From Massilicoli timonensis (GTDB taxonomy: Bacteria; Bacillota_I; Bacilli_A; Erysipelotrichales; Erysipelotrichaceae), in NCBI RefSeq assembly GCF_900199515.1, contig NZ_LT963434.1, forward strand, positions 633,272 to 665,271: 32,000 nucleotides of DNA, given 5' to 3'. The notes below the pieces were generated by a model. The model saw only the letters and a list, made by a program, of their open reading frames with translations. It was not told the origin of the DNA and made no database searches. Shown here one piece after another: positions 4,635-19,103 of this stretch (position 1 is the first letter of the stretch; the number at the start of each line of letters is the position of its first letter). A program made the position numbers and the translations under genes.

Positions 4635-4655
4635 ATACTATTTTCCTATATATAA

Positions 4656-4678
4656 CAAAAAAGTGGATCGCTCCACTT
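4656..4678 (-). terminator. Rho-independent terminator of the surface-protein gene
   Basis: Minus strand AAGTGGA-gcga-TCCACTT followed by a T run, 24 nt after the stop at 4702. Confidence 0.7.
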
Positions 4679-4701: not shown

Positions 4702-6810
4702 TTAGTTTAATTTCTTTTTCAGTGTCAATGCTCCTGCAAGTGCAAGGCTCAGCATCAGCAGTGCCGCATATGCTTCTGTCTGGCTCGCATCACCGGTATT
4801 TGGCGTACTTCCGTTCTCTGATGGTTTTGTATCATCCAAAATGATCGAAGGATTGACTACTTCTTCCTTATCCAGCGTCGTTTTCGCGCCGTCTGTATAA
4901 ACCAGTGCATAGGTCGAGAAACGATCGCTCTGGAAAGATACGGTGCCGTCCGCATTTTTCACGACCGGAATTCTGGTTACTTCATTTCCGTGGATCCGCA
5001 CGATGTAGAAGTCATAGTTTTCTTTTTGCAGCTGCTGTGGAATCGCTACGGTAAAAGTTACTTTTTCACTTAACTGATTCAGTTTGCCAAGCGCGCTTCC
5101 CTGTGCTTCTACCAAAATGCTCAGATCCAGATACTGTGCCACTTTGGCTTCTTTTGCTTCGGTTTTTGTGATCAGATCGCGTAATACCGCCTCTACTGCC
5201 TTGACATCGGACGCACTTACTTCTTCTGCTGTTTTCTTTTCCACGGTAAGTGTCGTTTCTATATCATCTCCGGCTTCCATCGCCGCCTTGATCGCAGCGA
5301 CAACCTTTTCATCATTGCCCTTTACACTTTCGATCTGCTCGATCGTGTCCTTCAGCGTTTCGGTAAATGCCGCGCTGTCTTTTTGTGATACGCCTGCTTC
5401 CACTTCATTGCTGTTTTGATCAACGGAAGGCAGATCGACAACCACTTCATTTTCCGCTTCCGCTACGCTGACCTCACAAGTTGCTTTTGCACTTCCCACA
5501 GTCGCACTGATGATCGCTGTGCCTGCTTTTTTCGCTGTTACGGTGCCATCCTGTGCAACGGTCGCAACTGATGGATCACTGCTGCTGTAAGAGATCGCTT
5601 CCGTAGCATAAGACGGAGTGACAGTCGCTTTGATCTGTGCGCTTTCTCCTACCTGAAGCGACAGGCTAAGCGGATCGATGCTAATCGTGTTTGCTTTCCA
5701 ATTTGTCGTTACATAGGCTGCGGACGCATCCACAAGTGAATGAGCATCAAGCGGATCGGCGCTTGGACGCTGTCCTAAATTTAATGTAACCGGCGCCGTT
5801 TCATTCAGCCCTTCGATCGCCCATAAACGATCAGCGTATAATGCTTTGAACTTGGCTACATCGTCGCTGCGATACTGGAATCCGGATACGATGTCTTGGT
5901 AAGCAGCACCTGCTTCCACGTTGATTTCAATTGCGTTCGCATAGCCATAATCAACATTGCCGAAATTTGTCGTCCACCAAGAACCGGCGCCGCCGGCTCC
6001 TTCATAGCTTTCTTCATCAGGATAATAAGAGCCCGCATAGATCACACCGCTCTTACCGCCATAAAGATGGTAAGTCAGTTTCCCTTCGATGATCGCACGA
6101 TATAAGCTGCTGAGCGTCTTGACCTCTCCGTCATATAAAGAAAGCGTTACGTTGCCCAGTTTGCCGTTTGTTCCTGCGATAAAATTGTTTAATACAGCGG
6201 CTTGCTCCTCACCGATGCGAACATCCATCTCACCGATATAAGTATAAGAGGTAGCGCCTCTTAGATCATTGATCTCAGCGCCGTCGATCGTCATCGTCAG
6301 TTTATCGATCGCATAATTTTTATAAGAATAGCCGTTTTCTTCTTTGATCACAGCTTGGCCAAACGCTGCGTTCTGATTATCAGTACCCCATAATCCAAGC
6401 GTGATCTTACCGCCGTTGATATCTACTTCGGCATTCGTCACTTTGCTGGTTTTGCAGCTTTTCTCGTTTTTCATCTTGTTTCCGGCAACGATGCCTCTTA
6501 CCGTACCGCCATTCATCGTAATCTTGGTGCTAGGCAGATTGACAGCACTCTCAGTTGAATCACTGCCGCCGTAAACGATGTCATCGGCATCGATCAGCTG
6601 TTTTCCGCCATCCCATGTGATAAGCGCTGATTTCCCCGCTTCATCACTTTCTTCAATGGTAATCGGTGTACCGTTGGCAAAAAATTCATTTCCTGAGTAA
6701 GTCGGAGCAGAACCGCTGTTGCCTTCCGCATAAACCGTTGTCGGTACAACGCTCATGCCAAAAAGCAGTGCAGCTGATGCCAACACACCAAAAACACTTG
6801 TTTTTTTCAT
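4702..6810 (-). CDS. Sortase-anchored cell-surface protein (signal peptide, beta-helix-like Gly-rich repeats, Big_2 Ig-like domain, acidic Ala/Glu/Lys-rich stalk, C-terminal sorting signal TPNTG)
   Basis: I place the start at MKKTSVFGVLASAALLFGMSVVPTTVYA|EGN (ATG 6810) because AAGGAGAGGAGA lies 6 nt upstream. The ORF-track ATG at 6855 has no RBS and would lie about 12 nt from the predicted TSS. Big_2-like segment is ISIDPLSLSLQVGESAQIKATVTP...SSDPSVATVAQDGTVTAKKAGTAIISATV. The C-terminus is TPNTG, a hydrophobic helix, then KKKLN. Confidence 0.8.
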   Translation of the reverse strand: MKKTSVFGVLASAALLFGMSVVPTTVYAEGNSGSAPTYSGNEFFANGTPITIEESDEAGKSALITWDGGKQLIDADDIVYGGSDSTESAVNLPSTKITMNGGTVRGIVAGNKMKNEKSCKTSKVTNAEVDINGGKITLGLWGTDNQNAAFGQAVIKEENGYSYKNYAIDKLTMTIDGAEINDLRGATSYTYIGEMDVRIGEEQAAVLNNFIAGTNGKLGNVTLSLYDGEVKTLSSLYRAIIEGKLTYHLYGGKSGVIYAGSYYPDEESYEGAGGAGSWWTTNFGNVDYGYANAIEINVEAGAAYQDIVSGFQYRSDDVAKFKALYADRLWAIEGLNETAPVTLNLGQRPSADPLDAHSLVDASAAYVTTNWKANTISIDPLSLSLQVGESAQIKATVTPSYATEAISYSSSDPSVATVAQDGTVTAKKAGTAIISATVGSAKATCEVSVAEAENEVVVDLPSVDQNSNEVEAGVSQKDSAAFTETLKDTIEQIESVKGNDEKVVAAIKAAMEAGDDIETTLTVEKKTAEEVSASDVKAVEAVLRDLITKTEAKEAKVAQYLDLSILVEAQGSALGKLNQLSEKVTFTVAIPQQLQKENYDFYIVRIHGNEVTRIPVVKNADGTVSFQSDRFSTYALVYTDGAKTTLDKEEVVNPSIILDDTKPSENGSTPNTGDASQTEAYAALLMLSLALAGALTLKKKLN

Positions 6811-6873: not shown

Positions 6874-6904
6874 ATTATACCCCCCCCCCAGTCATATTTG
6901 TCAA
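6874..6904 (-). promoter_or_regulatory. Consensus sigma-A promoter with a G10 homopolymer in the spacer (predicted phase-variable)
   Basis: Minus strand TTGACA (6904-6899), aatatgact, GGGGGGGGGG (6889-6880), TATAAT (6879-6874). The spacer is 19 bp as sequenced. Confidence 0.65.
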
Positions 6905-7071: not shown

Positions 7072-7176
7072 GGCAAGAGGAACTTGCCATACGGAAAATC
7101 CCCTAATCTATCCCAATTCCGTATATCATTCTATCCCCTAAAACAAGGAAAAAGCCGGTCTTGCTGCCGGTTTTTT
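7072..7176 (+). ncRNA. C-rich sibling small RNA, copy A (putative; ends approximate)
   Basis: Extended -10 TGcTATACT (7057-7065). SL1 is GGCAAG-aggaa-CTTGCC (7072-7088). SL2 is ATACGGAA/TTCCGTAT (7089-7124) with a 20-nt loop carrying CCCC and CCC. Invariant 17-mer ATATCATTCTATCCCCT is at 7123-7139. Terminator is CCGG-tcttgctg-CCGG plus T6 (7155-7176). No + strand gene lies downstream. Confidence 0.55.
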
Positions 7177-7305
7177 CCTATCTTTGACAAAATTCACGCA
7201 AATTCTCCTTCATCATCATACAATCTAACACAATTATCTCGATAATCACATCATTTACCAAAAATGAAACATCTTTTTAACATTGCCATTCGCTATACTA
7301 TAGCC

Positions 7306-7431
7306 AACAGGAGATGAGAACTCCTGTTGAAGTAATCCCCTTAAATAAATTTTCTCATAACTTTTCTCCCTTAATTTTGTATTGATAATTTGTTAATGAA
7401 AAAATACCGTTTCCCCAAGACGGTATTTTTT
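7306..7431 (+). ncRNA. C-rich sibling small RNA, copy B (divergent paralog; putative)
   Basis: -10 box TATACTATAG (7294-7303). Perfect 9-bp SL1 CAACAGGAG-atgagaa-CTCCTGTTG (7305-7329). AATCCCCTTA and TTCTCCCTTA motifs are present. Terminator is ATACCGT-ttccccaag-ACGGTAT plus T6 (7404-7431), with CCCC in the loop. Same order of elements as A, C and D, but the middle is diverged. Confidence 0.4.
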
Positions 7432-7711
7432 CTGTATAAGTGCATAACAATCAACTATTTTGATGTTTATTGCAACTGAAAAAAAAGTAAAAAAATCATC
7501 TTTTGTTCGTTTATTGTTAGTTACAGCCATCTATCCCTATTACATTCTCATCTTAGAACAAAACTCATATTTTCGCATGACAAAGTACTGTCATTTTCCC
7601 AACTTTCATTGTTTGTTCACTTGCTCATCCATTGAGAAGATCAACAAGACTTTGTACGTTTATGAAAAACAAGCAAAAGAAAATAAGAACGATCCGGTGA
7701 ACGGCAGATTT

Positions 7712-8512
7712 CTATAAGGCGTGAAAAAGCGGCTGCCCTTTCTCAAACGTACAAAACGAAGAAAACCCACATGCCCTTAACACCTGTTTGCCCTCCTCGA
7801 TATAAGCGCCGACCTGTGCGGCATCGTGAGAATCAGAACCGATCGTAACGATCACGCCGCCCAGTTCCCGATAACGCTTCAAAATCATATGGGAAGGCGT
7901 GCTGTCCGCAAGACCATAGCGATGATAAGAAGTGTTTAATTCAATGCCTTTGCCTTTTTCGATCGCCAGCTTTAAGATCGCATCGATCACGTCCATACAC
8001 GCTTCATCCGGATAAACGCCCTGCTCATCATAGCGCTTGATCATATCCAAATGTCCCAGCACCTGATAATCATCAAAGCGTTTCATGACCGCCAAGATCG
8101 CTTCGTAATACTGTCTGTTGTATTCCGCCTGCGTTTTGCCTTTTTGAAAACCCTGATCCCAAAACTCCAGATCATCGATCTGATGGTTTGATAAAATGAT
8201 AAAGTCAAAGGGATAAGCCGCATATACTTCCTGATAGCGCTTGATACACGCCTCCTGCACGCCGAACTCACAGCCAAAGCGAATCGTGATCTGATCCTGA
8301 TAGCGTTTCTTTAATGCCAGATAGTGCTCATAATAACGAGGAAAATCCAATTCCCAAAGTCCATGCCCTGCACCCTTGACGCTGTAATCACAATGATCCG
8401 TGATGCAGATCTCATCAAGACCTTTTCGGATCGCGGTTTCGATCAGTTCCTCTAAAGGAAGCGCGCTGTCCGGGGAAAAAGCACTGTGCATATGATAATC
8501 AGCCAACATCAT
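7712..8512 (-). CDS. PHP-domain histidinol-phosphatase, HisJ family
   Basis: 266 aa. Metal-binding motifs DYHMHSAFSPDS, ICITDHCDY, LGHLD and IGSDSH. AAGGAGA RBS upstream. Confidence 0.85.
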   Translation of the reverse strand: MMLADYHMHSAFSPDSALPLEELIETAIRKGLDEICITDHCDYSVKGAGHGLWELDFPRYYEHYLALKKRYQDQITIRFGCEFGVQEACIKRYQEVYAAYPFDFIILSNHQIDDLEFWDQGFQKGKTQAEYNRQYYEAILAVMKRFDDYQVLGHLDMIKRYDEQGVYPDEACMDVIDAILKLAIEKGKGIELNTSYHRYGLADSTPSHMILKRYRELGGVIVTIGSDSHDAAQVGAYIEEGKQVLRACGFSSFCTFEKGQPLFHAL

Positions 8513-18891: not shown

Positions 18892-18920
18892 TTGACAATT
18901 CCATAGCGTTACAATATAAT
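18892..18920 (+). promoter_or_regulatory. Consensus sigma-A promoter of the tRNA operon
   Basis: TTGACA (18892-18897), exactly 17 nt, TATAAT (18915-18920). tRNA-Cys begins 15 nt downstream. Confidence 0.8.
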
Positions 18921-18934
18921 GTAATGGCACTCAT

Positions 18935-19008
18935 GGTTCCGTAGCCAAGTGGTAAGGCAATAGACTGCAACTCTGTGATCATCGGTTCAAATCCGATCGG
19001 AACCTCCA
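18935..19008 (+). tRNA. tRNA-Cys (anticodon GCA), CCA encoded
   Basis: Hand-folded cloverleaf. Acceptor GGTTCCG/CGGAACC. Anticodon stem ATAGA/TCTGT with loop CTGCAAC. T arm ATCGG-TTCAAAT-CCGAT. Discriminator T then CCA. Confidence 0.9.
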
Positions 19009-19013
19009 TTATT

Positions 19014-19103
19014 GGGGACATGGCGGAATAGGCAGACGCAACGGACTTAAAATCCGTTGGGAATTATACTCCCGTGCGGGTTCAAGTCCCGCTGTCCCCA
19101 CCA
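19014..19103 (+). tRNA. tRNA-Leu (anticodon TAA), long variable arm, CCA encoded
   Basis: Acceptor GGGGACA/TGTCCCC. Anticodon stem ACGGA/TCCGT with loop CTTAAAA. Variable arm GGGA...TCCC. T arm GCGGG-TTCAAGT-CCCGC. Discriminator A then CCA. Confidence 0.9.

Follow-up and report, generated by a model that had tools for sequence, protein, structure and literature searches.

The window analyzed in this report is a 32,000-nt stretch of the Massilicoli timonensis genome (Erysipelotrichaceae; NCBI RefSeq assembly GCF_900199515.1, contig NZ_LT963434.1, positions 633,272 to 665,271), which on its minus strand encodes a 702-amino-acid (aa) exported protein with an immunoglobulin-like (Ig) domain. We concentrate on the predicted promoter of that gene, in which a run of ten Gs takes up 10 of the 19 spacer positions between a perfect TTGACA and a perfect TATAAT, and on how the length of that run changes among close relatives. 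The features of the locus are listed here in window coordinates; the contigs mentioned are those of the comparison set described below.

6904-6899, minus strand: -35 hexamer TTGACA, perfect sigma-A consensus by sequence, the same in 24 of the 24 contigs that reach it
6898-6890, minus strand: non-repetitive part of the spacer, 9 nt, AATATGACT, invariant across all spanning contigs
6889-6880, minus strand: poly-G tract G10, GGGGGGGGGG (C10 on the plus strand), which abuts the -10 directly
6879-6874, minus strand: -10 hexamer TATAAT, perfect consensus by sequence, unchanged in all contigs
6828-6818, minus strand: ribosome-binding site AAGGAGAGGAG, read from the sequence, 7 nt before the ATG at 6810
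6810-6808, minus strand: ATG of the MKKTSVF... protein, with 63 nt between the -10 and this start codon
4702-6810, minus strand: coding sequence (CDS) of the 702-aa exported Ig-domain protein, from the listing of open reading frames (ORFs)
4655-4678, minus strand: intrinsic terminator past the gene, AAGTGGA-GCGA-TCCACTT and then a T-run, from hairpin and sequence
7146-7179, minus strand: terminator hairpin of the upstream unit, aaaaaaccggcagcaagaccggcttttt, from an inverted repeat search; upstream limit of the regulatory region

A predicted promoter with a G10 spacer

With G10 the spacer between the two hexamers measures 19 bp, and without two of the Gs it would measure 17 bp. The first-pass annotation of this DNA, made from the letters alone, had placed a G10 in the spacer of a perfect minus-strand promoter about 64 nt upstream of the MKKTSVF start, and had called it the longest G:C run in the window. 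We recover the same promoter at 6904-6874, with the same two spacings and a distance that differs by 1 nt in our count, and the 32,000 bases contain no other run of G or C that reaches 6, in a genome with a GC content of 45%. The 8-mer GGGGGGGG has three overlapping matches in the window, all of them within the tract, when 0.42 are expected.

Perfect promoters of the form TTGACA-N15-21-TATAAT are also scarce by chance, as shuffled sequences predict 0.05 of them in the window, and there are two. The second one (18892-18920, plus strand) has a 17-bp spacer and lies directly upstream of two tRNA genes (18935-19100, plus strand), which suggests that 17 bp is the canonical geometry for strong promoters in this organism. 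A generic promoter scan, restricted to 16-18-bp spacers and to candidates scoring 9/12 or better, reports no other minus-strand promoter in the 270-nt upstream region that goes from the hairpin at 7146-7179 to the ATG. Given terminators on both sides and one recognisable promoter, the gene appears to be a self-contained (monocistronic) transcription unit, with the tract within its predicted promoter.

The product starts with a signal peptide, followed by an N-terminal beta-rich domain (residues ~35-350), a Big_2 Ig-like domain (375-446, the one Pfam domain found, at 7e-15), an alpha/beta domain (~470-640), and a disordered linker, and it ends with a PNTGD motif, a transmembrane (TM) helix (678-701), and a KKK tail (terminus ...TPNTGDASQTEAYAALLMLSLALAGALTLKKKLN). 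An AlphaFold2 model with a mean predicted local distance difference test score (pLDDT) of 77 has the signal-peptide helix, a confident N-terminal beta-rich domain, and the C-terminal helix 678-701. A Foldseek search of this model against the PDB finds matches limited to Big_2/Ig-like domains, LigA, and S-layer proteins, and it assigns no identity to the N-terminal beta-rich domain.

That this is an exported surface protein is well supported. The signal peptide, the Big_2 domain, and the PNTGD motif with its TM helix and KKK tail together describe the kind of surface or secreted product that one looks for at a contingency locus. The first-pass annotation went further and described the protein as sortase-anchored, of which the export part stands and the anchoring becomes a plausible suggestion from the sequence. 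The sorting-signal motif is TPNTGD and not LPXTG, and it scores 13.9 bits against TIGR01167, below the 15.9-bit cutoff (E = 0.066). NCBI names a homolog "LPXTG anchor protein", with an identity of 44-50% (full-length alignment and alignment over 53% of the query). A look through the listed ORFs of the 32-kb window, made without a domain scan and confined to this part of the genome, brings up no evident sortase-like ORF.

Upstream of the hairpin, the ~530 nt that separate it from the end of a PHP-domain gene at 7712 (window 7180-7711) have no convincing ORF and no Rfam match. This stretch includes an A8/T8 run at 7479-7486, with T7 in its place in one lineage.

Tract length among close relatives

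Scans of GTDB genomes and JGI metagenomes for the locus by its exact flanks, CAAATATGACTG-N0-24-GTATAATATAGCTGAA, did not return any match, and for that reason the comparison set was built from exact-protein look-ups. We looked up the exact window protein and six members of its cluster (98-99% identity) in public assemblies, which resulted in 37 contigs. Counting the window, 26 tracts are bounded; the contigs range from 2 to 185 kb, and all proteins are 98-100% identical. The isolate's own protein record is partial and lies on a 2,002-nt contig, from which the tract of the type strain could not be read. Proteins at least 90% identical bear the names Massilicoli timonensis and "Candidatus Onthosoma merdavium" (Erysipelotrichaceae; human and chicken gut). 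The bounded tracts distribute by length as follows.

G6, 15-bp spacer: 1 copy
G8, 17-bp spacer: 1 copy
G9, 18-bp spacer: 7 copies
G10, 19-bp spacer: 10 copies
G11, 20-bp spacer: 5 copies
G12, 21-bp spacer: 2 copies

While the length changes, nothing else in the promoter does. No contig has an interrupted tract, which is pure G throughout and across 10 or more haplotypes, and wherever the contigs reach them, the two hexamers and the 9 nt of the spacer outside the tract do not differ.

Does the tract change faster than the DNA around it? Eleven loci aligned over 5.1 kb have 80 columns with single-nucleotide polymorphisms (SNPs) and six indel sites. Five of the six indels are single-base and track the SNP lineages, one of them being the T7/T8 run at window 7479-7486, and the G tract is the sole indel discordant with those lineages. 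Two pairs of loci, each from one study, have zero SNPs over the 5.1 kb and different tracts: SRR27114628 with G9 vs. SRR27114668 with G10, and SRR12730744 with G10 vs. SRR12730739 with G12. Over a 2,254-nt region common to 27 loci we find 10 haplotypes, and the tract varies within four of them (lengths 9/11/9/9/10 in hap0, 10/12/10 in hap1, 10/11 in hap2, and 11/10 in hap7). The same protein also appears in two runs of another single study with G10 (SRR21280395) and G12 (SRR21280392).

Thus, the tract changes repeatedly on branches that have no substitution, and it is hypermutable. The repeat varies much faster than its surroundings, with lengths from G6 to G12 and differences at zero SNPs, while the other indels are bound to lineages. 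The first-pass annotation had predicted slipped-strand phase variation and had proposed to compare tract lengths across strains. That comparison finds the opposite of an invariant tract, as the 26 bounded tracts behind 98-100% identical proteins run from G6 to G12, and the differences inside haplotypes without substitution in 2,254 nt support the phase-variation prediction.

The contigs also tend to end here, with 12 of the 37 beginning in the tract or within ~35 nt downstream of it. Contigs of 2-185 kb would end here far less often by chance, and a de Bruijn assembly is expected to break in this way at a mixed-length site, although we take this as only suggestive.

In all 37 contigs, wherever the neighbors are visible, a PHP-domain gene lies upstream and a DEAD-box helicase lies downstream. 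One lineage (loci L006 and L008) lacks 1 nt close to the 3′ end of this PHP-domain gene, at alignment column 541, and the called product goes from 265-266 aa to 282-283 aa.

More distant homologs tell us about the promoter before the tract. A 48%-identical ortholog (L022, 1-95) has TTGTAA-AAAAAATGAGGTAGGGG-TATAAT at the same position with a 17-bp spacer, in which an A8 run stands beside the -35 and an interrupted G-rich GAGGTAGGGG takes the place of the window's G10. This layout backs the assignment of the promoter and the idea that 17 bp is its ground state. Of the homologs compared, this ortholog alone has a G-rich 17-bp spacer that is still recognisable as homologous. (The ORF of this ortholog is called as starting inside TATAATG.) Two other homologs, P0003 (46%) and P0004 (42%, full-length alignment), have ordinary tract-less promoters, TTGACA-17-TATACT and an extended -10, and the gene neighborhood of P0003 differs from that of the window locus. 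The absence of the tract from distant homologs indicates that it is not ancient. From these sequences, the position of the promoter appears conserved and 17 bp appears to be the ancestral or ordinary spacing, and the pure tract is probably a recent, lineage-specific acquisition that has been kept uninterrupted since.

Poly-G promoters in other genomes

We searched one genome per GTDB species for the pattern TTGACA-N7-11-GGGGGGGG-TATAAT, which gave at least 120 loci (L030-L149), when rough arithmetic that allows for promoter enrichment puts the chance expectation at about ten matches. The taxa among the matches listed are nearly all uncultured Bacillota from the animal gut or rumen, namely Clostridia, "Bacilli", Christensenellaceae, Oscillospiraceae, Borkfalkia, Lachnospiraceae, and Anaeroplasmataceae; others listed include gut Treponema and other Spirochaetia, Saccharibacteria, Selenomonadales, Streptobacillus, and Helicobacter. 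The length of the G run among the matches listed peaks at 9 (60 loci) and 10 (26 loci), and does not decay from 8.

The genes behind these promoters tend to encode exported proteins. Among the matches listed, 86 of the 110 downstream ORFs that start within 300 nt (78%) begin with a signal peptide or an N-terminal TM-like segment, vs. 104 of 419 controls (25%), where the controls are the other ORFs of at least 200 aa within the same loci. The Fisher p-value for this enrichment is 1.6e-24, calculated with a crude heuristic and with length thresholds that differ between the two sets. Most of the 108 downstream proteins compared to Pfam are without a family; the commonest assignment is the BspA-type leucine-rich repeat LRR_5 (8 proteins), then LRR_8 (5), and there are also Listeria-Bacteroides repeats, Ig-like surface domains, and N-methyl pilin motifs. 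The surveyed loci, 831 kb in total, contain ten more G runs of 8 or longer, and 6 or 7 of these are again flanked by hexamers resembling a -35 and a -10, with the run directly against the -10.

The spacers of the matches listed are distributed as follows.

15 bp: 17 loci
16 bp: 18 loci
17 bp: 6 loci
18 bp: 29 loci
19 bp: 38 loci

Thus, the 17-bp class is the rarest among the matches listed (binomial p = 2e-5 against a uniform expectation), and M. timonensis shares the deficit, as G8 is found in one of the 26 bounded tracts and the mode is G10, which corresponds to 19 bp. The simplest reading is that assemblies report the majority state and that this state would be low or OFF, one or two slips from ON. 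Another possibility is that the geometry of poly(dG) shifts the optimum.

Variation in tract length is also seen in a second lineage, for one exact 353-aa protein that is a homolog of an Avimicrobium protein (L060). It is found behind TTGACA-AAGTGC followed by G9 (2 contigs), G10 (1 contig), or G11 (2 contigs), and behind AAGTGCC-G8 (1 contig), and G9 and G11 occur on two contigs of one assembly. A homolog of this protein has TTGACT and TATAAT separated by 17 nt without a tract, and there the promoter is identical in 10 of 10 contigs.

The 353-aa protein is found beside three different neighbors (QueT, an EF-Tu-like GTPase, and SecA). Loci L150-L169 represent a large, fast-diverging family of exported proteins of ~330-350 aa in chicken-gut Clostridia, with 765 homologs at E <= 1e-20, many of them on contigs that barely exceed the gene. 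Several members of this family end in ...NP(D/S)TGR right at the stop codon, without a hydrophobic tail.

A candidate contingency locus

Sigma-70-type promoters go from optimal to nearly inactive across spacers of 15-21 bp. We consider it probable that the G tract is a contingency (hypermutable) element, located in the spacer of the surface-protein gene's only recognisable sigma-A promoter. Strand slippage in replication would add or remove G:C pairs, and each step of 1 bp would alter the distance between the -35 and the -10 by 1 bp and their relative rotation by ~34 degrees. G8 would provide the optimal 17 bp; G9 (18 bp) and G7 (which would give 16 bp) would be weakened; and both G6 (15 bp) and G10-G12 (19-21 bp) would be poor or silent. 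The outcome would be heritable and reversible subpopulations with much, little, or no protein, in a graded or an ON/OFF manner. Since most populations are at G9-G11, low or OFF is predicted to be the usual state, and ON that of a minority. As for what could select between states, speculative candidates are secretory immunoglobulin A (IgA), phages with the protein as their receptor, and a balance of adhesion against dispersal. The use of the promoter, the effect of spacing on expression, slippage, reversibility, and the selective agent are all elements that we infer.

Several points weigh against this proposal. All lengths are those of an assembly consensus, several of the contigs have coverage of ~4-6x, and some of the differences of ±1 could be technical. 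Besides, consensus lengths compare assemblies, and not cells of one culture. The use of the promoter and the spacing effect are argued by analogy to other systems, and the length that should be ON, G8, is rare (1 of 26). A G at position -14 makes for a partial extended -10, which could relax the dependence on spacing. The optimum may also lie elsewhere than at G8, given the non-canonical helical parameters of poly(dG).poly(dC). Finally, the tract is missing from the homologs at 41-46% identity.

If one takes the technical points to their limit, the G run would be of fixed length, and both the lengths and the breaks would come from Illumina or polymerase chain reaction (PCR) homopolymer error and from the behavior of assemblers. 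G runs of 9 or more are known trouble spots (PMC9187656), and the 4-6x coverage of several contigs and their frequent breaks at the tract go in the same direction. But the consensus lengths span 7 nt (G6-G12) over three assemblers (MEGAHIT, SPAdes, and Logan), and polymerase error widens the distribution of read lengths but should not shift its mode by 2-4 nt. The T7/T8 run of the same contigs varies along lineages alone, and in the second lineage a tract-less promoter is identical in 10 of 10 contigs, vs. four lengths in six tract-bearing contigs. An artefact would not predict either that G-run lengths among the survey matches listed peak at 9-10 instead of decaying from 8, and altogether we regard this explanation as very unlikely.

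Another explanation accepts the tract as a real mutational hotspot and denies it a regulatory effect, with expression going through the partial extended -10 or another promoter. It would be consistent with the G at -14, and with most assemblies having 18-20-bp spacers, which is odd if expression matters. However, a neutral G10 should decay by substitution in a genome of 45% GC whose 32-kb window has no second G or C run reaching 6, and this one is uninterrupted everywhere. The same placement recurs at no fewer than 120 loci with a strong tie to exported proteins, the 6-7 of ten further G runs of 8 or more that sit in promoter spacers were not selected for that placement, and the scan for 16-18-bp spacers finds no alternative promoter in the 270-nt upstream region. 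We find a neutral hotspot unlikely. The tract could also work through the binding of a regulator or through local DNA structure and not by simple spacing, as has been proposed for meningococcal opc and Bordetella fim. In favor of such an effect, 17-bp spacers are the least common in the comparison across species (6 of the 108 matches listed), which an optimum at 17 does not predict, and the G tracts always abut the -10, which hints at a positional requirement. On the other hand, OFF as the majority state explains the rarity equally well; two perfect consensus hexamers should not need an activator; no repeated or palindromic operator-like motif is found near the promoter; and the tract-less homologs use plain 17-bp spacers. 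Our estimate for a regulator or structural effect is accordingly low, and the spacing-based contingency element remains the reading that we favor.

Other types of switch or element were considered at this locus and rejected or set aside. For an inverton, no inverted repeats bracket 6874-6904, and the upstream terminator hairpin is the only strong inverted repeat. An intragenic frameshift switch would need the tract within the CDS, and the tract stops 69 nt short of the start codon, on its upstream side. As for a riboswitch or another RNA element 5′ of the gene, the Rfam matches in the window are two tRNAs only. A single G10 run should not be able to fold into an intramolecular G-quadruplex, and since the tract is upstream of the -10 it would not be transcribed from this promoter, which speaks against reiterative transcription.

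By position, hypervariability, and surface product, the sequence evidence would class this as a promoter-spacer contingency locus of the porA/tp0126/vlp type. In Treponema pallidum, tp0126 (an OmpW homolog) has a poly-G between the -35 and the -10 and its transcription is optimal at a 17-nt spacer, and the promoter poly-G tracts of tp0126 and of tprE/G/J/L are ~7-12 long and vary within and between isolates (PMC7864442). Both tp0126 and our locus have a poly-G of variable length in the spacer of a surface-protein promoter; unlike ours, the T. pallidum case is that of a spirochaete pathogen with a measured effect on expression, which here would follow by analogy. The tpr genes differ from the window locus in that their tract is not clearly placed within the spacer and that a CRP-like regulator takes part.

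A passage of the same paper describes a poly-G spacer for porA of Neisseria meningitidis, with expression graded by spacer length and an optimum at 17 bp (PMC7864442). The likeness is in the G homopolymer between the -35 and the -10 of a surface-protein gene, but N. meningitidis is a Gram-negative pathogen and the porA hexamers are imperfect, whereas here both are perfect and the tract abuts the -10. The opc and fetA genes have poly-C, and the opc tract overlaps the -35. For porA, the grading of expression by poly-G spacer length is reportedly due to van der Ende in 1995.

The vlp genes of Mycoplasma hyorhinis have a homopolymer in the spacer that switches lipoprotein surface antigens ON and OFF. 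They differ from the window locus in that the homopolymer is poly-A, the genes form a multigene lipoprotein family, and M. hyorhinis is a pathogen without a cell wall. Mollicutes and Erysipelotrichia are sister groups.

Within Bacillota, the nearest cases are the poly-T tracts upstream of the streptococcal adhesins R28 and alpha-C (bca of group B Streptococcus) (PMC7098570). In Streptococcus pyogenes M28, the poly-T of 8-13 nt between Spy1336 and R28-Spy1337 is polymorphic among strains, and steps of 1 nt give three transcript states (PMC7098570). This is also a polymorphic homopolymer, and the R28 gene encodes an LPXTG-type adhesin, but the streptococcus is a pathogen, the poly-T lies in a divergent region between direct repeats, and an AraC-like regulator is co-regulated. 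Bifidobacterium breve, a Gram-positive gut commensal, shares with our locus the G-tracts and a surface structure as their target: tracts of G10-G12 control a sortase-dependent pilus, and the mix of lengths shifts in vivo (PMC9187656). Unlike here, B. breve belongs to the Actinomycetota and its tracts are intragenic and switch by translational frameshift; promoter-spacer G-tracts are mentioned in that paper only in passing (PMC9187656).

In all, the mechanism is already known from pathogens, and its occurrence in gut Bacillota is apparently unreported. What is known of phase variation by repeat slippage comes almost entirely from pathogens, and the known theme in gut commensals is that of the invertible promoters of Bacteroidales. 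Our literature searches for phase variation by simple sequence repeats (SSRs) in Erysipelotrichia or gut Clostridia did not find any report, which agrees with the first-pass annotation in that a poly-G spacer switch is not established for adhesins of gut Bacillota. A 2025 review asks whether multi-locus phase variation really belongs to pathogens alone or whether database bias makes it seem so (PMC11868660).

The interest of the locus comes mainly from the design appearing to be widespread and unrecorded in gut Bacillota. The window offers one concrete case, in a gut Erysipelotrichaceae species that can be cultivated (M. timonensis DSM 103513), and to judge from the survey, uncultured gut Bacillota may have hundreds of comparable surface-protein switches. 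We see an even chance that poly-G tracts placed directly against the -10 of sigma-A consensus promoters form a large uncatalogued class of contingency switches, acting on the surface and secreted proteomes of many uncultured animal-gut bacteria, with the population consensus parked 1-2 bp off the optimum. The products of such a class would be BspA-type LRR proteins, Ig-like adhesins, pilins, and lipoproteins, and its taxa would be Clostridia, Erysipelotrichales and other "Bacilli", Christensenellales, Oscillospiraceae, gut Treponema, and Saccharibacteria.

If this class is real, multi-locus SSR phase variation would be a mainstream strategy of commensals alongside invertons, and not a speciality of pathogens. 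Genomes that are "identical" at the strain level could differ in surface phenotype, and poly-G loci may be where the microbiota hedges its bets on IgA coating, phage susceptibility, and adhesion. Pipelines for metagenome-assembled genomes (MAGs) would then systematically break or mis-call poly-G regulatory sites.

Several of the surveyed genomes have more than one poly-G promoter close together (L121, L122, L105, and L073, and the contigs CAZSIF01 with L034, L062, L107, and L118). There are three within 8 kb in L121, and in L122 two tandem paralogs ending in ...NTGD-TM-KFRKAN each have their own G8 promoter. One Oscillospiraceae MAG has four poly-G promoter loci, which hints at multi-locus "phasomes". 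In L074 (~5045, minus strand), a C9 and a G8 run face each other across an 18-nt stretch with TTGTCAAG, possibly as divergent tract-bearing promoters, and in a Treponema locus (L145, ~5097, plus strand) the run after TTGACA reaches G16.

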